Source: Parcubacteria group bacterium GW2011_GWA1_56_13 | GTDB lineage: Bacteria; Patescibacteriota; Minisyncoccia; Phycocordibacterales; Phycocordibacteraceae | Assembly: GCA_001004905.1 (NCBI GenBank) | Contig: LCRY01000002.1 | Span: 378,129-442,128 of the forward strand | Reading direction: 5' to 3' | DNA: 64,000 nt | Shown here: positions 4,017 to 54,209 of the stretch, piece after piece | How positions within the stretch are numbered: the stretch's first letter is position 1 | Layout: every line of letters starts with the position of its first letter | The notes under the pieces: model-generated | What the model was told of the DNA's origin: nothing | The model's input: the letters and a program-made list of their open reading frames with translations, nothing else | Databases searched by the model: none | Translations under genes and position numbers: made by a program

Positions 4017-5225
4017 ATGCGTATTCTTGCTATAGAAACGAGCTGTGATGAAACCGCCATCGCCATTGTCGAGGCAACGGGGGATGAAAAAGCGGCGAAG
4101 TTCCGCGTACTCGGGAATGCGCTTCTCTCGCAGGTCGAGACACACGCGAAGTATGGGGGCGTTTTTCCGTCCCTCGCGAAACGCGAGCACGCGAAAAATC
4201 TCGTTCCGATACTCGAAGCGGCGCTCGAAGAAGCGGAACTTTTGCACGAAGATACGCAGGTGATTCCGGATACCATCCGGAATCAGGTCGAGAAAATCCT
4301 TGAGCGAGAACCCGAGCTCGGCGAGCCGTTCCTCGACTTCGTCTCGGAATCCGAACGACCCGACATAGACGCCATCGCGGTAACGGCTGGTCCGGGGCTT
4401 GAACCGGCGCTATGGGTCGGCATCAATTTCGCGCGTGCTCTCTCGCTCCTCTGGGGAAAGCCCCTCGTCGCTGTTAACCACATGGAGGGCCACGTGATTT
4501 CCGCCTTGGCTAACGGAAATCACGTCGCCCCGCCCTTGGCGGGTAGCGACGCGCGAGCGTATCTTGAGATCAAAAACGTTGAGATACCGGTGCTGGCGCT
4601 TCTGATTTCCGGCGGGCACACCGAGCTCGTTGTCATGAGGAAGTGGCTCTCGTATGAACGCGTTGGCCAGACGCGCGACGACGCGGTGGGCGAAGCGTTC
4701 GATAAAGTCGCCCGCATGCTCGCGCTCCCCTATCCGGGCGGGCCTGAAATATCGCGTCTCGCCGAAGCGTCCCGCTCCGCGGGCGACACCCCTTCGTTCA
4801 CCCTGCCGCGGCCGATGATGCACTCGGATGTCTGCGATTTCTCGTTCGCGGGACTGAAGACGGCGGTGCTGTACCTGCTGAAGACGAAAACGGACCTGAC
4901 GGCCAAGGAAAAACAACACATCGCGCACGAATTCGAGAACGCCGTCGCCGAAGTGCTGTGGAGGAAGACCGAGTTGGCGCTTGGGCGGACGGGCGCGCGT
5001 ACGCTGGTCCTGGGCGGCGGCGTCTCGGCGAACGCGCACATCCGCCGCGAGTTCGCGCGCAACATGCGGCGGGAATATCCCGACCGCGCGCTGCGTATCC
5101 CTGCGGCCTCGCTCACGACCGACAACGCCATCATGATAGCCCTCGCCGGCTTCTACCGGGCGCGTCAGAACGATTTCGCGTCCGCCGATGCGCTTCAAGC
5201 CGACGGAAACGCCCGTCTCGGATAA
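4017..5225 (+). CDS. tsaD: tRNA N6-adenosine threonylcarbamoyltransferase TsaD (Kae1/Gcp family)
   Basis: MRILAIETSCDETAIAIV, VNHMEGH, LISGGHTELV, LGGGVSAN motifs, with long inserts. Confidence 0.85.
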   Translation: MRILAIETSCDETAIAIVEATGDEKAAKFRVLGNALLSQVETHAKYGGVFPSLAKREHAKNLVPILEAALEEAELLHEDTQVIPDTIRNQVEKILEREPELGEPFLDFVSESERPDIDAIAVTAGPGLEPALWVGINFARALSLLWGKPLVAVNHMEGHVISALANGNHVAPPLAGSDARAYLEIKNVEIPVLALLISGGHTELVVMRKWLSYERVGQTRDDAVGEAFDKVARMLALPYPGGPEISRLAEASRSAGDTPSFTLPRPMMHSDVCDFSFAGLKTAVLYLLKTKTDLTAKEKQHIAHEFENAVAEVLWRKTELALGRTGARTLVLGGGVSANAHIRREFARNMRREYPDRALRIPAASLTTDNAIMIALAGFYRARQNDFASADALQADGNARLG

Positions 5226-19741: not shown

Positions 19742-20614
19742 GGACCGAACCAGGCGACCGCCCCGTGAGATAATTGCTCATTATGGTGCACTACGTATAT
19801 GTGCTTAGGGGACCCAAGCAGTTTTACATCGGTTCTACCAATGACCTAAAGAGACGCTTCGAAGAACATTGTTCTGGAATGTCTTTGGCGACGAAAGGAA
19901 GAGGTCCGTGGAAACTCGTGTATTATGAAGCGTCTCTTTCCCGCAAGGGGGTATTTTCGAGAGAACGATATTTAAAAACTGCTTGGGGGAAGAGATATCT
20001 CAAGAAACGTATCAACGATAGTGAGTAGTTATCTCACGGGGAGGAAAGTCCGAACATGCGCCAATTTTGCCTGCCGCAGGCAGTTGCAAAATTGAGCGTC
20101 CCGAACGAGGTGAGGGGCCTATCCCTCGCAAAAGCCTCGGGGCGCTCGATTCTGTAACCACCTTCGGCGGGCAGAATTGACAAACAGGTAGCGGGTAACG
20201 CCCGCCGTCCGGAAACCTTCGATAAAAGACTCGGGTTCGTCCCGAGTCATGTCGAGGGACAAGGACAGAGGTGCCTACAGAGACGCTTGCGAGCGAAAGC
20301 GAGCAGGCGCCCCATGAGATGTCGCCGCAAGGCGGCTATCTCACGGGGCGAGCTCCCAAGTAATTGGGAGGTGCAACGAGCAAATCCTTACCCGCATGCA
20401 AGGCCGTGACCCAGTGGGATAAAACCTCCGAGATTAGTGTTGCATCTCGAGAACCTAACGGATTTCGAGATACTGATTAAAATCGACATGGGTTATCCCA
20501 CGGGTAGTGCCGCTCGAGCTCGCAAGCGATTGCGGGCCCAGATAAATGGTCGTCGCCGATCCTGCAACCACCTCCGGTGGGCAGGACCGGTACAGAATTC
20601 GGCTTATCGGTTCG
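19742..20614 (+). ncRNA. rnpB: RNase P RNA (bacterial type A) with a ~280-nt insertion in P3 carrying a GIY-YIG ORF
   Basis: P4 motifs gGAGGAAAGTCCGaac (20042) and ACAGAAttCGGCTTATCGG (20590) covary (ccgaa/ttcgg). GGTAACGCC P11/12 motif at ~20190. P1 gaccgaacc (19743) pairs with ggttcggtc (20606). P3 stem ccccgtgagataa / ttatctcacgggg brackets the ORF. Confidence 0.8.
19783..20028 (+). CDS. GIY-YIG nuclease family protein (stand-alone, ~81 aa)
   Basis: YVYVLRG...FYIGSTNDLKRRFEEH GIY-YIG motif. Lies entirely between the two arms of the rnpB P3 stem. The ORF track start is TTG 19774. Confidence 0.7.
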   Translation: MVHYVYVLRGPKQFYIGSTNDLKRRFEEHCSGMSLATKGRGPWKLVYYEASLSRKGVFSRERYLKTAWGKRYLKKRINDSE

Positions 20615-20623
20615 GTCTATACA

Positions 20624-28653: not shown

Positions 28654-31377
28654 CTAGCCGTTCAAATTGATTCCGTTGACCCTCTTCACCGAGTCGCTAG
28701 CGAGGCCGTTCAGTGTTTTCACCGAGGTTTCGTCGAGGCCGTTAAACGTGCTGATGTCGGAAGTCGGTATCGAAGGGCTTACCGACGCGGATTCTGAACT
28801 CGAAGGCGAAAATGAGGCGGAAGGGGACAAGCTTGGGGAGAGCGACGCGGAGGGCGAGCTTGACGCACTCGGGGATGGCGATGGAGAAATGGATGAGCTT
28901 GGCGAGAGAGAGGCCGATGGCGACTGGCTCGGGGATTCGGAAGCGGAGGGAGAGACAGACGGGCTCGGGGAGGCCGATGGCGACTGGCTCGGGGATTCAG
29001 AGGCAGAGGGAGAGAGCGAAGCGGAGGGAGACAGTGATGGCGAAACCGATGATGAGGGAGAGAGCGAGGCGGAAGGCGAAAGAGAGGGCGAAGCGGAACT
29101 CGAGGGAGAGATGGATGCGCTCGGAGATATCGAGGGACTTTCAGATGCGGAAGGCGAAAGCGAGGCGGATGGGCTAAGCGACGGCGAAACTGACGAGCTC
29201 GGTGAAAGCGACGCGCTCGGGGAAAGCGACGGACTTTCTGACGCCGAAGGCGAAAGTGAGGGAGAGACAGACGGGCTCGGGGAGGCCGAGGGCGACTGGC
29301 TCGGGGATTCAGAACTTGAAGGCGAGAGCGAAGCTGAGGGGGAAAGGCTCGGAGATTCGGAACTTGAGGGCGATAACGAAGCGGAGGGAGAGAGCGAAGG
29401 AGAAGCCGAGGCGGAGGGAGAGATTGAGGCGGAGGGAGAGATTGAGGAGGATTCAGAGGCAGAGGGAGAGAGAGACGCCGACGGCGAGAGTGAAGGACTT
29501 TCAGACGTGGATGGCGAGAGCGAGGCGGAGGGAGAGATTGAGGGCGATTCGGATGCCGAAGGCGACTGGCTCGGGGATTCAGAAGCGGAGGGAGAGAGCG
29601 ATGCCGATGGTGAGAGCGACGGGGAGATGGATGAGCTTGGCGAGAGTGAAGCCGAGGGAGAGAACGATGGCGACTCAGACGCTGAGGGCGAGAGTGAAGC
29701 TGAGGGCGAGAGCGACGGAGAAACGGAAGAACTCGGCGAGAGCGAGGCGCTGGGAGAGAGGGACGGCGATTCAGAAGTTGAGGGTGAGAGCGAGGCGGAA
29801 GGTGAGAATGACGGGGACTCGGATGCGGATGGAGAGAGTGAGGCGGATGGGCTGAGCGATGGCGATTCAGAAGTTGAGGGTGAGAGCGAGGCTGACGGAG
29901 ATTGACTCGGCGATTCGGAGGCGGATGGGCTCAGGGATGCAGACGGAGAGAGCGAGGGGGAAACAGAGGAACTTGGCGAGAGCGAGGATGACGGAGAAAG
30001 CGAGGGCGATTCGGATGCCGAGGGTGAAAGAGATGCAGAGGGAGAGAGCGAGGGTGATTCGGAGGCGGATGGGCTCAACGATGCCGAGGGTGACAGAGAG
30101 GGAGAAGCCGATGAGCTTGGCGAGAGCGAGGCGCTCGGAGATAACGATGGTGATTCAGAAGCCGAGGGCGACAACGACGCAGACGGGCTTAAGGACGGTG
30201 AAACCGACGAACTTGGCGAGAGCGAGGCTGACGGAGATTGACTCGGCGATTCGGAGGCGGATGGGCTCAGGGATGCAGACGGAGAGAGCGAAGGTGATTC
30301 GGAAGCGGATGGGCTCAACGATGCCGAGGGTGACAGAGAGGGAGAAGCCGATGAGCTTGGTGAGAGCGAGGATGAAGGAGAGAGGGATGGAGATATCGAA
30401 GAGGAAGGCGACAATGAAGCTGATGGGGAGAAAGACGGACTTTCAGAAGTCGATGGGGATAATGATGCTGAGGGAGAGAGCGAAGCGGATGGGGAAAGGG
30501 AGGGAGAAACGGAAGAGCTTTGCGCCGCTTGCGATGGCGAAACGGAAGCCGAAGGCGAAAGCGATGGGGATTCCGATGTCGAGGGGCTAAGCGAAGCTGA
30601 TGGGGAGAAGGACGGACTTTCAGAAGTCGATGGGGATAATGATGCTGAGGGAGAGAGTGAGGGTGATTCGGATGTAGACGGGCTAAGCGATGCTGAGGGA
30701 GAGAGTGAGGGTGATTCGGATGTAGACGGGCTAAGCGATGCAGACGGAGAGAGCGAGGGTGATTCGGATGACGAGGGAGAGAGAGACGGTGACTCCGATG
30801 GAGACTCTGAGGGCGATTGAGAGGAAGACGGCGAGAGGCTCGGTGATTCGGAAGGTGATTCGGAAGGTGATTCGGAAGGGCTTACCGAGGAAGACGGCGT
30901 CGGCGGCGTGAAGTCAACCGTGCACGTAACGAAATCGATGGAAAAAGTGACCGCGTCGGTATCGTTCCCCCGGATGCTCCGCAACCGGGCCCTGACGTTA
31001 TTGGCGGTTCTCAGGTCAGCGAGCGTTACGCCCGAGGTGACTTGATGTTCCAGGAGCGTGTCTACTGTCTTCTCCGTCGCGTCGCTCTGTTCCGAACCAA
31101 CTGCCGAGGTGCCGATGAACACCTGTATCGCCTGCGTGGCGATCGACATGTTGGTACTGACCTTGTATTGGAGGGAAACCGTAACCGAATTGATCGTTGA
31201 GCTGTCGGGGATGAGCGCGGTGTCAAACGCGGGGAATCCGAAATATGCCGAGATTTCGGCGTTTTTGCCGGGTGCGGCGGTCGCGTACTGAGTATTGTCG
31301 CCATCGTAGGCCAGCTGGGGGTTCGTGTATCCCGTCGTGATGGCTGTATGGGCATTGGCGTTCTGTGTGACAGCCAT
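28654..31377 (-). CDS. 907-aa Ser/Pro tandem-repeat protein (globular N-terminal ~165 aa, ~700 aa of SPSxSxSPS repeats, NGL-repeat C-terminus)
   Basis: Single uninterrupted minus-strand ORF through 2.7 kb. Plus-strand frames are broken by stops. Co-directional with the flanking genes. Confidence 0.6.
28800..30900. repeat. degenerate ~18/48-bp tandem coding repeats (Ser/Pro-rich region)
   Basis: Repeated ggcgagagcgaggcggagggagag... units encoding ([16 protein letters not shown])n on the minus strand. Confidence 0.8.
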
Positions 31378-43557: not shown

Positions 43558-43695
43558 GCAAAGGGAATACCGGCGCATCGTATGCGGCGCGGCCAAAAGG
43601 CCGCGCCGCGCGTCGTTTTGCGATCGTGTGCCTGTCCTGAAAACGCGCAGTATACTAGCAAGGTGAATATAGAAGATACCGTTGACGCGCACTTC

Positions 43696-45861
43696 ATGCG
43701 GCTCCGTCCCGACCAGAAGCGGGCGCTCGCCAAACTCGGGATACGGACTATTCGTGACCTGCTGTACCACTTCCCATCGCGGTATGAACGCTCGGGGCCT
43801 TCGACCACTATTTCCGGGGTCACGGCGGGAGCCGAGGTCACGCTTTACGGCACGGTGCGCAAGCCCGCCGTCCGCAAGACCTGGAAAAGCCGCCGGCCTA
43901 TCGCCGAAGCATGGCTCGAGGACGCGTCAGGGAAACTCAAGATGATGTGGTTCTCCCAGCCCTATATCGCCAAAACGCTCCACGACGGTATGGCGGTGAA
44001 AGTGAGCGGGCGGGTGGCCGGCGCGGGTGCGAAAACGTATCTCGCCAATCCGTCCATCGAACGATCCCCCGTCGCGCCCGAAGCGGCGCACGACACTCTT
44101 TTCTACCAAGGTGGAACCTTGTACGGCTCAGTACAAGGTTCCACCTTGAATGCCGCGCTGTATCCGGTCTATCCGGAAAGCCGAGGAATTTCCTCGCTCT
44201 GGTTCTTGCACGCCTTAAGGAAAGTATTCGAGGAGCGCGCGCACGAGAACATCGCGGACCCTATCCCAAAAGAGCTCCTCGCGCGCTATAGCCTCCCGTC
44301 GCTTCCCGCAGCGCTTGTGTTCATGCATGCGCCGCGTCGGTTCTCCGACGCGACGGCGGCGCGCAAGCGTTTCGCGTTCGAGGAAGTATTCGCCCTCCAG
44401 ATAGTGATGCAGAAACGACGACGCGCGCACATATCGGAGAAGGCGCTGCCGGTTCTGGTCGACGACGGCGCGATGCGCCGTCTTGGGGATTTCGTCGCTT
44501 CATTTCCCTTCCCCGCCACCGCCGCACAGATGCGCGCGATAGACGCCATCGCGAACGATTTTGAAAAACCGCATCCGATGCTCCGCTTGCTTGAGGGCGA
44601 TGTGGGGAGCGGTAAGACCGCGGTCGCTGCAGCGACCGCGTACCTCGTCGCGACTTCGACTCCGGCGGGAAGGATCGCCGGTACGCTCCAGGTCGCGTAT
44701 CTCTGCCCGACCGAGATACTCGCGAAACAGCATTTTTCCACGTTCGTTTCGTACTTCCGCGACCATCCGGTACCCATCGGGCTCATCACCGGCAGCGAAT
44801 GCCGGAAATTCCCCTCGCGCGTGCGGTACGAGGAATCCGCGAAACTGTCCCGGGCGGCATTCAAGAAAATGGCGGCGAACGGCGAGCTACCCATCATCAT
44901 CGGTACGCACGCACTCATCGAGAAATCGCTCTCGCTCAAATATTTCGCGTACGCCATCATTGACGAACAGCATCGTTTCGGCACCATACACCGACAGAAG
45001 CTTGCGACCAAAGGCACCGTCGCGCCACACCTGCTCTCCATGACGGCGACGCCCATCCCGCGCACGCTCGCGCTCACGCTCTACAGCGACCTCGATCTCA
45101 CGCTTCTGGATGAAATGCCCGCCGGAAGAAAAGCGGTAGTGACCGAAGTGCTCGCTCCCGAAAAGCGGGAACGAGCGTACGAGCGGGTACGGTCTGAACT
45201 CGCCATCGGGCACCAGGCATACGTCATCTGCCCGCGCATTGATGAACCGGACCCGGCGAAGGAACTCGCGCTTCAGGCAAAATCGGTCAAAGCCGAAGCG
45301 GCGCGCTTGCAGAAAGACGTCTTCCCCGACGCAATTATCGGCATCCTGCACAGCAAGATGACACCCGGCGACAAGGAGGAAACGATGAAAAAATTCGAAA
45401 AGGGATACATCGATATCCTCGTCGCCACGTCGGTGGTCGAGGTGGGCGTCAATGTCGCGAATGCCACCGTCATCCTCATCGAAGGCGCCGAACGCTTCGG
45501 TCTCGCTCAACTCCATCAACTCCGAGGACGCGTTATCCGCTCAACGCATCAGCCGTACTGCTTCGCCCTCCCCGAGATGTTCGGCGACGTGACGCGGGAA
45601 CGCATGAAGGCGTTCGCAAAAACGAACAATGGCTTCGAGCTCGCCGAATACGACCTTGCGCTCCGGGGCGCAGGCGAGCTTGGCGGCGGCAGACAGTGGG
45701 GGGTTTCCGACGTCGCGATGGAAGCGCTCAAAAACATCAAGCTCGTGGAAGCGGCGCGCGCCGAGGCGGCGCGCCTCGTCGAGATAGACCCCGGGTTGAA
45801 AAATCATTCCGCGCTCGCCCTGCGCGCGGCGCACGCCGACCGTGAGATGCATTTGGAGTAG
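43696..45861 (+). CDS. recG: ATP-dependent DNA helicase RecG
   Basis: Wedge/OB domain, helicase motifs GDVGSGKT, DEQHRFG, ATPIPRTL, HQLRGRV. The start may lie upstream (ORF track 43582). Confidence 0.85.
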   Translation: MRLRPDQKRALAKLGIRTIRDLLYHFPSRYERSGPSTTISGVTAGAEVTLYGTVRKPAVRKTWKSRRPIAEAWLEDASGKLKMMWFSQPYIAKTLHDGMAVKVSGRVAGAGAKTYLANPSIERSPVAPEAAHDTLFYQGGTLYGSVQGSTLNAALYPVYPESRGISSLWFLHALRKVFEERAHENIADPIPKELLARYSLPSLPAALVFMHAPRRFSDATAARKRFAFEEVFALQIVMQKRRRAHISEKALPVLVDDGAMRRLGDFVASFPFPATAAQMRAIDAIANDFEKPHPMLRLLEGDVGSGKTAVAAATAYLVATSTPAGRIAGTLQVAYLCPTEILAKQHFSTFVSYFRDHPVPIGLITGSECRKFPSRVRYEESAKLSRAAFKKMAANGELPIIIGTHALIEKSLSLKYFAYAIIDEQHRFGTIHRQKLATKGTVAPHLLSMTATPIPRTLALTLYSDLDLTLLDEMPAGRKAVVTEVLAPEKRERAYERVRSELAIGHQAYVICPRIDEPDPAKELALQAKSVKAEAARLQKDVFPDAIIGILHSKMTPGDKEETMKKFEKGYIDILVATSVVEVGVNVANATVILIEGAERFGLAQLHQLRGRVIRSTHQPYCFALPEMFGDVTRERMKAFAKTNNGFELAEYDLALRGAGELGGGRQWGVSDVAMEALKNIKLVEAARAEAARLVEIDPGLKNHSALALRAAHADREMHLE

Positions 45862-45979
45862 TGTCGCCCTAGCAACGTAAAAAATGGTGTGTTATTATGC
45901 CGTCAGTCGCTCGCCAAGGTCGAGATGACTGAGGACGGAGCGGCAATTCTTTTTCTTTCACACGATCTGGAGGTGTACG

Positions 45980-46384
45980 ATGAACGCTAAGTTCGCATCC
46001 AGTATCATCCTTTCCATCGTTTGCGCCATCAGCTTGTCCTTTTCGAATCCTGTTCTCGCCGGCGACAAGCTGACTAGCCAGAAAGTCCACAATGCCGTAT
46101 GGCAGTTCCTCGAAGGCAGCGCGGGCGGCTTGCAGGTCATAGGCGTCCTGGAGGTACCGCAACAAAACGTTGCGAAGGCAGATTTGGTCATCCAGAACTG
46201 GCTCCTTGCCACCCCGAAAAATGACCCGGTCACTGCATATGCCCTTGGGCCTGGTGGACAGACATTCAAGTGGTCGGGGCGAGCCGTCGCAGTATTCGTG
46301 CACTACAACGATGGGCGATGGGTACTGAATCGGGTCGCCTTCGAACGAGGAACGTTCGATAACCTGAACATCGTTGCCAGGTGA
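45980..46384 (+). CDS. small secreted protein (134 aa) on a ~650-bp segment bracketed by 28-bp direct repeats
   Basis: GGAGGTG SD, signal peptide MNAKFASSIILSIVCAISLSFSNPVLAG. Confidence 0.55.
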   Translation: MNAKFASSIILSIVCAISLSFSNPVLAGDKLTSQKVHNAVWQFLEGSAGGLQVIGVLEVPQQNVAKADLVIQNWLLATPKNDPVTAYALGPGGQTFKWSGRAVAVFVHYNDGRWVLNRVAFERGTFDNLNIVAR

Positions 46385-46479
46385 TAGCGATAGCGGACCC
46401 TCCACAACCTCACCGAGCGTGGGGTTGTTTATTTACCCCGGCTCCACGGGATTCGAACCGCTGCGCTTCGCGCCTCCCG

Positions 46480-46507
46480 CGCCGACCGTGAGATGCATTT
46501 GGAGTAG
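46480..46507 (+). repeat. 28-bp exact direct repeat of the recG 3' end (45834..45861)
   Basis: cgccgaccgtgagatgcatttggagtag occurs at both positions. A degenerate tRNA-like T-arm fragment (gggattcgaacc) lies just upstream at ~46449. Confidence 0.8.
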
Positions 46508-46612
46508 TCGTGCGCTACAGTATCAGAACGCCCATCCGTATGATTACATACTGTGTGGTCGTTCGGAGAATATGAGAACGAACGAGGAAATTCATCTCAT
46601 GTTTCCTCACTC

Positions 46613-46689
46613 CCACCCGTAGCTCAGCTGGTTAGAGCATCGAGCTTATACCTCGAGGGTCCTTGGTTCGAATCCAAGCGGGTGGACCA
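46613..46689 (+). tRNA. tRNA-Ile(TAT), CCA encoded
   Basis: ccacccg tagctcagctggttagagc a tcgag-ctTATac-ctcga gggtc cttggttcgaatccaag cgggtgg acca. Ile-type body with a UAU anticodon. Confidence 0.75.
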
Positions 46690-46691
46690 GT

Positions 46692-48641
46692 TTACGCGAT
46701 GTCGCCGGAGCCAACGGGAGCGATGGTGATACCTGGCTCCTCTTCTTTTTTCTTCGGCGTGATGCCGTTCGCGATGAGGATTTTCTCGAATTCGTGGCGC
46801 TCGACGGTCTCCTTTTCGATGAGTTCCTTGGCGATGGCGTCGAGCGCGGTACGGTGCTCGGTGATGACCTTTTTTGCGCGAGATTTCGCCTCGTCAATGA
46901 TGCGGGCGACTTCGGCGTCTATCTGTGCCGCGACCTGCTCGGAGTACGGTTCGTTCCCGAGGTTCCGCTCGCCGAAGGCGATGGGGCCCATCCGCTCGCT
47001 CATTCCGTAGCGGGCGACCATGTCGCGTGCAAGCGCGGTAATGACCATCAGGTCGTTCGACGGCCCGGTCGTCACGTCGTCGAAGAGCAACTCTTCGGTA
47101 ACGTAGCCGCCGAGCGTTGCCGCGATATCGTCGAGGAACTGTTTTCTCGACTGCATCTTTTTATCTTCAAACGGAAGCTTCAGCGTATAGCCGGCGGCGC
47201 GGCCGCGGCTGATGATGGAAATTTTGTGTACCGGGTCGGCGTTCGGAAGTATCGAGGAGACGAGTGCGTGTCCGGCTTCGTGGTATGCCGTCAGCTCTTT
47301 TTCTTTCTTCGTGAGCAAGTGTGATTTGCGCTCCGGGCCGAGCATCACCTTTTCTATCGAGCGTATAAGGTCGTACTGCGTCACCTCTTTACGATTCTCG
47401 CGTGCGGCGAGTATCGCCCCTTCGTTCATGAGCGAATAGAGTTCGGCGCCCGAGAAGCCCGGCGTCCGCTCCGCGATGACCGCGAGCGCCACATCCGGGC
47501 CCAAGGGCTTCGTGCGCGCGTGTATCTTCAATATCTCCTCGCGGTCGCGGCGGTCCGGCAGGTCTATGGTGACGCGCCGGTCGAAACGGCCCGGGCGCAG
47601 AAGCGCGGGGTCGAGTACGTCGGGTCTGTTGGTCGCCGCCATGACAACGACTTTCTCGGTCGGCTCGAATCCGTCCATTTCCACGAGTATCTGGTTCAGC
47701 GTCTGTTCGCGCTCATCGTTGCCGCCGCCCACTCCCGCGCCGCGCACGCGCCCGACCGCGTCTATCTCATCAACGAAGATGATGGCGGGTGCCGCTTTTT
47801 TCGCGAGCTGGAACAGGTCGCGCACGCGGGAAGCACCGACGCCGACGAACATTTCGACGAATTCGGAGCCCGAAATGGAGAAGAACGGCACACCCGCTTC
47901 GCCCGCGACCGCGCGTGCAAGCAACGTCTTGCCCGTGCCCGGCGCGCCCATGAGGATAATGCCCTTCGGTATGCGCGCGCCGATGTCGAGGAATTTCTTC
48001 GGACTCTTGAGAAAGTCGACTATCTCAAGAAGCTCTTCCTTCGCCTCGCGCGCCCCCGCGATATCCTTGAAGGTGACGCGTTGTGAAAGATCGGCGGGGT
48101 CGGTCACGCGCGCCTTGGACTGGCCGAAACTGAAGGCCTGCATGCCCGCACCCCGCACTTGCCGCGAAAGGAACCAAAATAAAAACGCGATGAAAAGAAG
48201 CGGGAGTACGATCGGCGCGAGCGTGAGGAACCAGAATTCAAACCCGGATTGTCCCTGTATCGTTATGGAAACCTTGGTGAGTTCCTGCGGCGTAACGCCG
48301 TAAGTCGCGAGCGTCTCCGGAAGTCCCGCGGAAGGGTCCTTGCGCGAGGTTTTTTCCGCTCCGTCGGTATAGACGAGGTCAAGCGAATCGCCCCTCACGG
48401 TGATCGACTGCACCTTCCCCGCCGCGACGTCCGCAGCAACGACCGAAAGAGGAATGTCTGAACTCGGCTCTACAAGACCGGAAAAGAGCGAATAGGCGCT
48501 CATGAGGACGAGGAATATGAGGACCGTCGTCGTTAGGTTGCCGAAGAACGACGGGCCGCCGAAAAACGAGCGCATGTTCCGCCGGAACGGCGGTATTGAG
48601 GGCTTCTTCCCTTTTGGTTTCTTCGCCGGTGTGCGAGGCAT
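46692..48641 (-). CDS. ftsH: ATP-dependent zinc metalloprotease FtsH
   Basis: Two TM segments, Walker [19 protein letters not shown] zinc site. ATG 48641 preferred over the ORF track start 48932, whose Pro-rich extension overlaps smpB. Confidence 0.85.
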
Positions 48642-48726: not shown

Positions 48727-49170
48727 ATGACCCTCGTCGCATACAAGAAAGCGTTGCTCAAATACATCCCGCTTGAGAGCTTTTCTGCGGGACTCGAACT
48801 TTTCGGCACCGAAGTGAAAGCATTGCGAAGCAAGCTCGGCTCTTTAGAGGGTGCGCGTGTGGTGGTGCGGGGAGGCGAAGCGTTCATCGTCGGTATGACC
48901 ATTCCGCCGTACCAGACCGCAAATACTAACAAGAGTTATGAGCCGGACCGCGCGCGACGCCTGCTGCTCACCAAAAGAGAGATAGCCGCGCTCGCCGACG
49001 CCGAAGCAAAAAAGGGCTTGACAATTATACCTCTTGAGGTGTATACTGCAGGCACATTCGTGAAGGCGCGCATCGCCATCGTTCGCGGCAAGGGCAAGGA
49101 GGACCGCCGCGAGGACCTGAAGAAGCGCGACGCCGAGCGGGAACGGGAGCGTGTCCTGAAAAATCGCTGA
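48727..49170 (+). CDS. smpB: SsrA-binding protein SmpB
   Basis: ALLKYIPLESFSAGLELFGTEVKALR...GGEAFIVGMTIPPY conserved SmpB core. tmRNA lies immediately downstream. Confidence 0.85.
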   Translation: MTLVAYKKALLKYIPLESFSAGLELFGTEVKALRSKLGSLEGARVVVRGGEAFIVGMTIPPYQTANTNKSYEPDRARRLLLTKREIAALADAEAKKGLTIIPLEVYTAGTFVKARIAIVRGKGKEDRREDLKKRDAERERERVLKNR

Positions 49171-49210: not shown

Positions 49211-49613
49211 GGGGGTGACCGGCTTTGACGGTCTGTACCTTGAAATGCGTGCGACGCAGTGCACTCCCGCTCACCACTGTAAACTGGCGGGAAACAAACT
49301 TGCCAAGAACACTCTTGCAAGCGCGAAGCAGTCGCCTTACTTCGGTAAGGTCGGCGATATCGCGTTCGCCTACGCGACGGCTCGCGGCTAACGCCCGTTC
49401 ATCCTCCCGGGTTTTCGCAGCCGGAGGCATGGGCGGAATTATCTGCGGAATCGGTCCTTCGTTCTCCCGAACTGAGGATCTAAACAAGGGATCGGGCAGG
49501 AATGGTTTCGCCGGCGTTCCTCGCATCCTGCCTTAGACACGAACGTTGGCTATGCGTCGTAGAAGCGCTTTCATAGACGGATTCGGACCGGGGTCCAATT
49601 CCCCGCACCTCCA
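49211..49613 (+). ncRNA. ssrA: tmRNA (SsrA), one-piece
   Basis: 5' GGGGGUGACCGGCUUUGACGG, 3' tRNA-like domain GGACCGGGGUCCAAUUCCCCG CACCUCC A. Candidate tag ORF ends ...AFAYATARG-TAA at 49389-49391. TGgTATTCT -10-like element at 49193. Confidence 0.8.
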
Positions 49614-49684
49614 CAAAATAACGAGTCCTGAAAGGACGACTATATTTTGTGAGAGTACTGAGTTCTGTCCGCAGAACGAACGTG

Positions 49685-52400: not shown

Positions 52401-54209
52401 TTATCGGCGCGATCTCGCGCGATCATTCTCGGTAAGGAATTGTTTGCGCAGGCGGACACTCGCAGGTGTGATCTCCAGATACTCGTCGTCTGCCATTACC
52501 TCGAGCCCGCGCTCAATGGTAAGGTCGAAGGTCGGCACAAGCACGATGGCTTCGTCGGTTCCGGAGGCGCGGACGTTCGACTGGTTCTTCCCTCTCGTCG
52601 GGTTTACCAGCATCTCCTCGCCTTTCGCGGTGTTGCCGATGACCATGCCCTCGTACACCTCGGTCGCCGGCTTCACGTAGAGCTGCCCCCGGTCCTGCAG
52701 GTTCCAGAGCGAATAGCCGAGCGCTTTGCCGGTGGCCATCGAGATCATTGAGCCGACCTGGCGCTTCCTGATCTCGCCCGCGAACGGATGGAAACCGACG
52801 AAACGCGACGAGAGAATTCCCTCGCCTTTGGTATCAATAATGAACATATTCTTATAGCCCAAAAGGCCGCGCGTCGGCCCGAGAAGTGTGAGACGGACCA
52901 TGTTCCCGTGCTGGACGAGGTTCTGTAGCACGAAAGCGCGCTGACCCAGCTTCTCGATGACCGCTCCTTGGAATTCTGACGGCGTATCGACGATGACTTC
53001 TTCAAAGGGCTCCGTTTGCATGCCGTTTTCCTCGCGGAAAATGACATGCGGCTGCGAGACCTGGAGCTCATAGCCCTCGCGCCGCATGTTTTCAAGAAGC
53101 ACGGCGATATGGAGTTCGCCGCGGCCGGACACGTGGAAGGAATCCGAGTTGGAGAAATCTATCTTGAGCCCGACATTGACCTCGAGTTCCTTCATGAGCC
53201 GTTCGCGTATCTGGCGGCTCGTGACGCACTTCCCTTCTCGGCCGGCGAACGGCGAATTATTAACGAGGAAATCGAGCGAGATAGTCGGCTCGTCCACGGC
53301 GATCGCGGGCAGGGGTGCCGCATTCTCATCGGTCGTGACGGTCTCGCCGATATAGATGTCGGGGAGGCCCGCGACGAGCACGATATCTCCCGCCGATGCT
53401 TCCGGCGTTTCAACGCGTTCAAGCCCTTTGAACGTAAATATCTTCGTCGTACGGCCGGTGCGCGTCGTGCCATCCGCTTTTTTTATAAAAACCTGCTGAT
53501 TGGGACGGACGGTCCCCGCATAGATGCGACCGACCGCGAGCCGGCCCATGAAATTGTCGTACGCGAGATTGAAGGGCTGCAGCATCAAAGGCGCATCTGC
53601 GGACGCGCTCACGTTTGCGGCGGGAACCTTGTCGAGAATGTCGGCTTCGGCCATGGAGCCGCCTGTCATGAGCTTGTCGGGGGAAAGCGCGGCACGGCCG
53701 TCGCGACCGATCGAGTAGACGACCGGAAAATCGGATTGCTCGTCGGAAGCGCCGAGCTCGAGGAAAAGTTCGAGCACCTGCTCGAGGGTAGCGGCCGGAT
53801 CGGCCGCGGGCTTGTCCACCTTATTGATGATGACGATGGGCTTGAGCCCGAGTTCGAGCGATTTCTTCAGTACGAAACGGGTCTGCGGCATCGGCCCTTC
53901 TTGCGCATCAACGACGAGCAGGACCGAATCAATGGAGCGCAGCACGCGCTCAACCTCGCTGCCGAAATCCGCGTGCCCGGGCGTGTCCACGATGTTTATC
54001 TTCGTGACGGGACGTCCCGAGTCCTTCGAAGGATATTCGACCGCCGCGTTCTTCGCGTAAATGGTAATGCCGCGCTCCCTCTCGAGCGCGTTCGTGTCCA
54101 TCGTGGTTCCTTCCGCCGCCGCGCCCGTCTGCTTCAGAATGGCGTCAGTAAGCGCGGTTTTCCCGTGGTCCACATGTGCGATTATCGCTATATTTCTTAT
54201 CTCGGTCAT
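52401..54209 (-). CDS. typA: translational GTPase TypA/BipA
   Basis: [31 protein letters not shown]-motifs and BipA domain order. Confidence 0.9.

Follow-up and report, generated by a model that had tools for sequence, protein, structure and literature searches.

A tRNA-Ile(UAU) gene beside ftsH as the probable reader of AUA in a Kaiserbacterium, and its either/or relation to tilS in CPR bacteria

No single discrimination in the genetic code is harder than reading AUA while leaving AUG unread, and the textbook bacterial answer to it is the lysidine made by TilS. We asked how AUA would be read in an organism whose DNA carries a tRNA-Ile gene with the anticodon UAU. The DNA analysed, a stretch of 64,000 nucleotides that we call the window, belongs to a member of Candidatus Kaiserbacteria (CPR/Patescibacteria; class Paceibacteria in GTDB terms). 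The RecG and TypA that it encodes match proteins of Parcubacteria group bacterium GW2011_GWA1_56_13 exactly.

The use of tRNA-Ile(UAU) as a TilS-independent AUA decoder is established. Such decoders are known from Mycoplasma mobile, M. haemofelis, M. suis, Bifidobacterium and Neorickettsia, as well as from two archaea and from eukaryotes. For bacteria, the count of Taniguchi et al. is nine species from three clades (PMC3575796), and the tRNAscan-SE 2.0 paper gives 17 genomes with 'tRNA-Ile3(UAU) instead of Ile2', CPR not among them (PMC8450103). In texts of 2021-2026, tRNA-Ile(UAU) is a rare exception and TilS is found in about 98% of bacterial genomes.

The tRNA gene and its anticodon

The gene and its anticodon lie as follows.

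46613..46689, + strand: tRNA-Ile(UAU) gene, 77 nt, CCA encoded (ARAGORN; Rfam RF00005; covariation in 78 homologues)
46647..46649, + strand: anticodon TAT (U34 A35 U36) in the loop CUUAUAC (ARAGORN anticodon position 35; direct sequence reading)

Running ARAGORN on the window, we obtained a tRNA-Ile with anticodon tat at exactly 46613-46689 (+), in agreement with the UAU anticodon that an earlier note on this DNA had claimed. The Rfam model RF00005 agreed, matching 46613-46686 over its full length (1-71) with 69.7 bits (gathering score 29, E = 3.8e-13). Read from the 5′ end, the tRNA consists of the acceptor strand CCACCCG, UA, the D arm GCUC-AGCUGGUUA-GAGC, A, the anticodon stem strand UCGAG, the loop CUUAUAC, the second stem strand CUCGA, the variable loop GGGUC, the T arm CUUGG-UUCGAAU-CCAAG, the acceptor strand CGGGUGG (CGGGTGG in the DNA), the discriminator A73 and the encoded CCA. 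Pairing is Watson-Crick in all four stems, and the acceptor stem includes C1-G72, C4-G69 and C5-G68. The 7-nt anticodon loop (C32 U33 U34 A35 U36 A37 C38) occupies 46645-46651, with U33 and A37 beside the anticodon; the anticodon falls at 46647-46649, and the loop register is therefore unambiguous. The cloverleaf is supported by the RF00005 covariance model and by covariation in 78 homologues, not by the minimum-energy fold of the single sequence, which kept the acceptor and D stems and lacked the other two arms (z = -2.2).

Position 34 is T in the window (46647) and in all 121 tRNA-Ile(tat) genes of the at least 120 loci scanned below. With T and not C at this position, tRNA-Ile(UAU) cannot be a substrate of TilS. 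The identity elements of E. coli tRNA-Ile, reportedly worked out by Nureki et al. in 1994, include A35, U36, A37 and the discriminator A73. All four are present here, together with U12-A23 and C4-G69, while G29-C41 and C38 are unlike E. coli; these are E. coli rules and may differ for a CPR IleRS. The D-arm and T-arm sequences that had been cited as an 'Ile-type body' did not carry that meaning: they are generic, and the D arm recurs in neighbouring tRNA-Met genes of relatives.

An antisense match to RF04354 (in effect plastid trnI-CAU, plastid ycf2) was considered as a sign of an Ile2-type body and rejected. The match is not discriminating because the same model also matches the tRNA-Arg(CCU) of the window (36.9 vs 42.7 bits). 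No sigma-70-like promoter was found upstream of tRNA-Ile(UAU), which is uninformative for CPR.

Use and meaning of AUA

In 53 non-overlapping long ORFs of the window, AUA accounts for 241 of 18,979 codons (12.7 per 1000), against 242 AUU and 595 AUC. It thus makes up 22% of the isoleucine codons at about 57% GC, a use that is 'high' in the classes of Muraski et al. 2025 (PMC12514573). Aligning 131 FtsH sequences, we found that the columns under the AUA codons of the window ftsH hold 68% Ile, 16% Val, 9% Leu and 1% Met. Over all 131 sequences, the profile of AUA columns equals that of AUU and AUC columns (Met 1-3%).

Judged from codon counts and alignment columns, AUA is an ordinary isoleucine codon here. 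Being both ordinary and frequent, it needs an efficient decoder. That the gene matters for AUA decoding, as the earlier note had suggested, is borne out to this extent: the UAU tRNA is present and AUA is used as isoleucine. Taken alone, the window makes the modest point that the tRNA call is correct and AUA a normal isoleucine codon.

AUA might instead be reassigned, for example to Met, or the tRNA might be charged by a different synthetase. The anticodon alone does not prove charging, and altered codes occur in the CPR relatives Absconditabacteria and Gracilibacteria (PMC8629427). Against this, AUA stands on Ile, Val and Leu columns as AUU and AUC do, with Met at the level given above, A73 is invariant, and A35, U36 and A37 are in place. 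We regard a different identity as very improbable.

Conservation of tRNA-Ile(UAU)

A pattern derived from the window tRNA, its fixed bases being the generic D-arm and T-arm sequences, CTTATA and GTC, was run against the GTDB species, each represented by one genome. At least 120 loci matched; they were selected by the pattern, so their counts are no estimate of frequency. Among the matches listed, 99 are labelled CPR, 14 are bacteria without a taxon name and 7 are labelled otherwise. The CPR labels among them are Kaiser- (three matches), Nomura-, Taylor-, Collier-, Shapiro-, Doudna-, Uhr-, Sung-, Wildermuth- and Peribacteria, as well as Paceibacterota, Microgenomates, 'Saccharibacteria' and 'Patescibacteria group'. 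In five of the seven otherwise-labelled loci the tRNA has 92% identity or more to CPR tRNAs, and the true outsiders among the matches listed are two, a Flavobacterium contig (L042) and a DPANN archaeon (L054). One viral contig also matched the pattern.

The loci L007, L014, L052, L074 and L094, labelled Gammaproteobacteria, Pseudomonadales or Spirochaetia at NCBI, have 32-41% GC, and their tRNA-Ile(UAU) is 92-97% identical to that of Collierbacteria, Shapirobacteria or other CPR. Wrong labels on the bins, or contamination by stray contigs, are the probable explanation.

The scanned loci yielded 78 distinct canonical 74-nt tRNA-Ile(UAU) sequences. In these, 99.8% of the stem cells are paired, compared with 24-48% in slid controls where the partner was moved by one to three columns. 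Changes on both sides occur in 15 of the 17 pairs that the search pattern had left free, and doubly changed cells number 389, against 96 ± 10 in shuffles. A73 is present in 78/78 and C38 in 65/78 homologues, neither position being fixed by the pattern. What we have here is a functional gene family rather than a one-off mutation. At the level of sequence, these comparisons show tRNA-Ile(UAU) to be under purifying selection in many CPR lineages. The earlier note had described bacteria with such a tRNA as uncommon; this is right for the literature on cultured bacteria, but in CPR the UAU type is common.

The same data bear on whether the gene could be a recent mutant copy, a pseudogene or an assembly artefact, that is, a tRNA-Ile(GAU) or tRNA(CAU) with a single anticodon change. 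The anticodon is indeed defined by a single base, and the Flavobacterium contig has identical bodies with GAT and TAT. The window gene is nevertheless present in near-identical contigs of independent assemblies (L001-L003: an anammox reactor metagenome, the UBA MAG GCA_003531405.1 and a JGI metagenome) and in the relatives L133 and L134, whose FtsH is 83-87% identical. Together with the compensatory changes and the invariant UAU of the 78 variants, this leaves a mutant copy hardly credible.

Three side observations concern the tRNAs themselves. The pair C1-G72 occurs in 31 of the 78 variants, that of the window included, in place of the usual bacterial G1-C72. In the Flavobacterium sp. MAG (L042:3276-3463), a tRNA-Ile(GAU) and a tRNA-Ile(UAU) with otherwise identical bodies lie 40 nt apart in opposite orientation; the pair is either a natural analogue of the Bacillus subtilis suppressor discussed below (G34 to U) or an assembly artefact. 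Finally, a Microgenomates-type tandem cluster (L008:98-483, L014:1-1223, L058:5901-6245, L119:3304-3607) combines a 71-nt CAU tRNA of unusual form (UGCGGGGUAGUGUACGG..., its D arm short and atypical), a CAU tRNA that is elongator-like and has an A31-C39 mismatch, and tRNA-Ile(UAU).

The window locus and the linkage to ftsH

The surroundings of the tRNA gene comprise the following features.

43582..45861, + strand: recG, upstream of the tRNA, same orientation (NCBIfam RecG)
45872..46517, no strand: segment of about 646 bp, inserted between recG and the tRNA (direct repeat; absent from L133)
46692..48575, − strand: ftsH, 627 aa, its stop codon 2 nt from the tRNA 3′ end, convergent (NCBIfam TIGR01241, 762 bits)
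48727..49170, + strand: smpB, divergent from ftsH, in the position held by tilS in TilS-type CPR (Pfam PF01668)
49211-49614, + strand: tmRNA, directly downstream of smpB (Rfam, 86.9 bits)
52401-54209: TypA

The local order is thus recG (+), a 646-bp insertion with a 134-aa ORF, the tRNA (+), ftsH (-), smpB (+) and tmRNA (+). Among the at least 120 eight-kb blocks around the scanned tRNAs, 79 contain ftsH, and the tRNA lies downstream of it in 74 of these 79. In 58 of the 74 both genes share a strand (median gap about 80 nt), and in 16 they converge as in the window. RecG is a frequent neighbour in about 58 UAU loci and SmpB by ftsH in about 42, among the matches listed.

In the window ftsH, AUA stands at 15 of 44 Ile codons of the called gene (p = 0.03) and at 23 of 52 of the longest ORF. 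An AUA-rich ftsH as the cause of the linkage was considered and rejected: over 55 CPR loci there is no enrichment (ftsH 0.30 vs 0.32).

The 3′ end of recG (...ADREMHLE*) occurs twice, at 45817-45871 and 46463-46517. The two copies are spaced 646 nt apart and are 82% identical over 55 nt, about 30 nt in the core being exactly the same. The segment looks like an insertion with target duplication. Its ORF (45980-46384, 134 aa) belongs to no known family, and the close relative L133 lacks the insertion, its recG stop lying 26 nt from the tRNA 5′ end. With a duplicated recG 3′ end flanking an inserted ORF directly upstream of the tRNA, and with a viral contig matching the tRNA pattern, one might suppose that a mobile element or phage carries the tRNA. 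The insertion, though, lies between recG and the tRNA, leaving the tRNA outside, and the order recG-tRNA-ftsH-smpB is conserved across CPR without the 646-bp insertion; we judge mobile carriage extremely unlikely.

A GGTTCGAATCC-like minus-strand stretch at about 46440-46530, which adjoins the duplicated recG 3′ end, was tried as a tRNA-like remnant and rejected, since it folds no better than shuffles (z = +0.55). The tmRNA tag peptide predicted by ARAGORN, AKQSPYFGKVGDIAFAYATARG, is unusual, its end differing from the usual ...LAA.

Either tilS or tRNA-Ile(UAU) at ftsH

In Firmicutes, the tilS-hprT-ftsH cluster is well known. Searches with E. coli TilS and later with three CPR TilS proteins covered the window, its 10-kb flanks on both sides and about 1.08 Mb of UAU-type CPR DNA, and gave no TilS homologue anywhere in this sequence. 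ARAGORN reported no CAU tRNA in the window. The CPR TilS queries did find named matches in 'Patescibacteria group', Kazan, Gracilibacteria, Moranbacteria and Doudnabacteria. On six TilS contigs (Moranbacteria, Kazan, two 'Patescibacteria group', Doudnabacteria and Gracilibacteria), tilS lies directly upstream of ftsH, and none of these six carries a tRNA(UAU) within 8-10 kb. In Southlakia epibionticum, a cultivated saccharibacterium, tilS (SEML1_0730, 294 aa) likewise lies directly upstream of ftsH (SEML1_0729), and the annotation has only one tRNA-Ile (PMC10633639 supplement). CPR are therefore not uniform in this respect. Over all TilS-bearing CPR loci examined, tilS is directly upstream of ftsH in 11 of 11.

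Using the window FtsH as query, we also scanned JGI metagenomes for ftsH loci, a sample that is not selected by the tRNA. The 80 loci obtained (50-87% identity) have tRNA-Ile(UAU) downstream of ftsH in 28 cases, TilS directly upstream in 6 and both in none. Full flanks are available for 33 loci, of which 17 have UAU, 3 have TilS, none has both and 13 have neither. The two scans together give 65 UAU loci whose sequence extends at least 1.2 kb beyond ftsH on its upstream side; TilS stands there in none of them, where 7-12 would be expected at the rate for non-UAU ftsH (11.5-19%). A matched pair illustrates the alternation: S1-gmk-tilS-ftsH-tRNAVal(GAC) in L213 (Moranbacteria) vs S1-ftsH-tRNAIle(UAU)-tRNAVal(GAC) in L177 and L186. 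In CPR relatives, ftsH-linked tilS and ftsH-linked tRNA(UAU) are mutually exclusive.

Kazan-like loci (L167:5376-7290, L214:5924-8984, L215:6383-8975) hold three CAU tRNA genes directly upstream of tilS-ftsH-murJ-lepA. One of the three is an initiator, and the other two are presumably elongator Met and Ile2; with this trio beside tilS, the whole AUG/AUA decoding set stands at one locus in Kazan-like CPR. Comparing the UAU tRNA with the three CAU tRNAs of TilS-type loci, we obtained flat identities (means 0.55-0.62) that indicate no origin.

tRNA counts in complete genomes

We re-tabulated Table S2 of Nakagawa et al. 2026 (PMC13011429), which covers 95 complete Patescibacteria genomes and counts tRNAs per amino acid, not per anticodon. 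A single Ile-typed tRNA goes with three or more CAU tRNAs in 50 of 50 genomes, and two or more Ile-typed tRNAs go with at most two CAU tRNAs in 40 of 45 (Fisher p = 1e-21, phylogenetic non-independence being ignored). The two-Ile type predominates in Dojkabacteria (7/7), Microgenomatia (12/12), ABY1 (4/4) and Paceibacteria (15/20); the type with one Ile and three CAU tRNAs predominates in Saccharimonadia (34/36), JAEDAM01 (7/7) and Kazan (1/1), and is found in 3 of 5 Gracilibacteria. From the loci described above, we infer that the second Ile-typed tRNA of the complete genomes is the UAU one. Because 34 of 36 complete Saccharimonadia are of the one-Ile, three-CAU type, 'Saccharibacteria' labels cannot be trusted at class level, and where NCBI gives many of the scan matches as 'uncultured Candidatus Saccharibacteria', the label is probably coarse.

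The link to tilS loss that the earlier note had drawn thus stands at the level of the locus: no CPR locus has both systems, and the tRNA counts of complete genomes are complementary. It could still be that tilS and tRNA-Ile2(CAU) lie elsewhere in the genome and that tRNA-Ile(UAU) adds capacity for AUA, a role suggested for it in Lactobacillus casei and L. plantarum. Some bacteria do have both systems (PMC3575796), and the tilS search of this genome covered the window and about 10 kb on each side. Redundancy also occurs nearer by, since 5 of the 45 complete two-Ile genomes have three CAU tRNAs. Set against this are the remaining 40 of those 45, the absence of TilS upstream of ftsH in all 65 UAU loci, and the fact that smpB occupies in the window the place that tilS takes in 11 of 11 TilS loci. 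No Kaiserbacteria name appears among the 240 TilS matches listed, about a tenth of which carry an organism name. On balance, a redundant decoder seems unlikely.

Discussion

We consider it likely that a functional minor tRNA-Ile(UAU) reads AUA directly in this Kaiserbacterium and replaces tRNA-Ile2(CAU) and TilS. With less assurance, we lean towards a broader view, in which direct UAU decoding without TilS and tRNA-Ile2(CAU) is prevailing and old in several CPR classes (Paceibacteria, Microgenomatia, Dojkabacteria, ABY1 and others), and the two systems share the ftsH locus, tilS upstream or tRNA-Ile(UAU) downstream.

Under the first of these readings, tRNA-Ile(UAU) ('tRNA-Ile3' in tRNAscan-SE usage) would pair directly with AUA, standing in for the CAU-transcribed tRNA-Ile2 and for TilS, which turns C34 into lysidine. 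The organism would have neither tilS nor tRNA-Ile2(CAU), and tRNA-Ile(UAU) would be its sole AUA reader. Charging would be by the organism's own IleRS via A35, U36, A37 and A73. The window also holds a gene that may act on A37.

4017..5225, + strand: tsaD, t6A37 synthesis (Pfam PF00814)

Given tsaD and the known role of t6A37, A37 of tRNA-Ile(UAU) and of other ANN-reading tRNAs probably carries t6A.

AUG misreading may be avoided by an unmodified U34 that binds G poorly, by analogy with the two bacterial cases that have been studied, Mycoplasma mobile and the Bacillus subtilis suppressor. There, unmodified U34 binds AUA strongly and AUG weakly, with the cognate ribosome helping (PMC3575796; PMC3919564). 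For M. mobile, Taniguchi et al. 2013 (PMC3575796) describe an unmodified U34 in tRNA-Ile2(UAU), an IleRS with Arg865 for Trp, and a ribosome that prevents AUG from being read. Alternatively, the anticodon-loop context (C32...C38) and the ribosome may restrict reading; as a speculation, the conserved C32...C38 context is a candidate element tuning the tRNA against AUG.

The type of IleRS matters here because Bifidobacterium and Neorickettsia have a eukaryote-type enzyme and M. mobile the Trp-to-Arg change. The class I synthetase in the window is ValRS. Among the scanned loci, an IleRS near tRNA(UAU) was found only in the DPANN archaeon MAG (L054), and the other synthetase fragments are ValRS and MetRS. 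In that MAG (L054:4191-7151), the gene that follows tRNA-Ile(UAU) directly and in the same orientation encodes a type-2 (MupA/MupB-like) IleRS. The close homologues of this IleRS all come from DPANN archaea, and it has no bearing on the CPR IleRS.

The proposed arrangement can be set beside known systems. Like M. mobile, this organism has a reduced genome with AUA in regular use, and a genomically encoded UAU tRNA, which there replaces TilS and tRNA-Ile2(CAU) and here probably does so. M. mobile is a single tip lineage, whereas the CPR gene is common to several classes and tied to ftsH. Bifidobacterium and Neorickettsia likewise encode tRNA-Ile(TAT), in their case without tilS (PMC3575796; PMC8450103), and have a eukaryote-type IleRS. 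Nanoarchaeum equitans and Korarchaeum cryptofilum, ultra-small or deep-branching, also use a UAU tRNA (tRNA-Ile3(UAU)) for a modified-C tRNA (PMC8450103; PMC3919564); they are archaea, however, and the system replaced is TiaS/agmatidine, not TilS/lysidine.

The laboratory suppressor of a Bacillus subtilis tilS deletion, tRNA-Ile1(UAU), resembles our case in that a tRNA-Ile with U34, there unmodified, replaces TilS with little AUG misreading (Fabret 2011; Kohrer 2014, PMC3919564). It is a G34-to-U mutant of the major tRNA-Ile, unlike the separate and anciently conserved CPR gene. The canonical pair of tRNA-Ile2(CAU) and TilS, finally, has the same task of reading AUA and not AUG, and in CPR that keep it tilS lies at the same locus by ftsH; its tRNA has C34 where T34 stands here.

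In the literature searched, we found no paper linking CPR or Patescibacteria with tilS, lysidine, AUA or UAU; a report outside it is possible. What appears undescribed is the breadth of tRNA-Ile(UAU) across CPR and its either/or relation with tilS at ftsH. An analogous absence in CPR, that of tRNA-Arg(ACG), was described by Shulgina and Eddy (PMC8629427). The window tRNA is ordinary for its lineage, and it is the lineage-wide pattern that would revise a common generalisation. If it is true, a sizeable share of bacterial diversity would do without an enzyme regarded as essential and about 98% conserved. If much of CPR uses UAU, TilS would not be near-universal, and the case for it as a broad antibacterial target or an essentiality marker would be weaker. 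What keeps U34 off AUG could then be sought among hundreds of tRNA variants that occur in nature, with the C32...C38 loop as candidate. The either/or at ftsH would serve as a simple genomic marker of the type of AUA decoding in fragmentary metagenome bins. The swap, or a retained pre-TilS state as in the model of Taniguchi et al., could be reconstructed on the CPR tree.

Other features of the window

A class A RNase P RNA was matched at 20336-20622 (+) with 51.4 bits only (gathering score 100), covering 287 nt of a model of 367 positions. It may be a reduced RNase P RNA, and several weak sRNA and leader matches overlapping it are probably spurious. A 907-aa serine-rich repeat protein with weak matches to MSCRAMM and serine-rich adhesins is encoded at 28654-31377 (-), at a strong local GC skew (+0.28). 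Near the end of the window, a gene of the deoxyhypusine synthase family (PF01916; 62017-63117, +) adjoins an S-adenosylmethionine decarboxylase gene (PF02675; 63307-63708, -), a polyamine or homospermidine-type pair that is unexpected in so reduced a genome.
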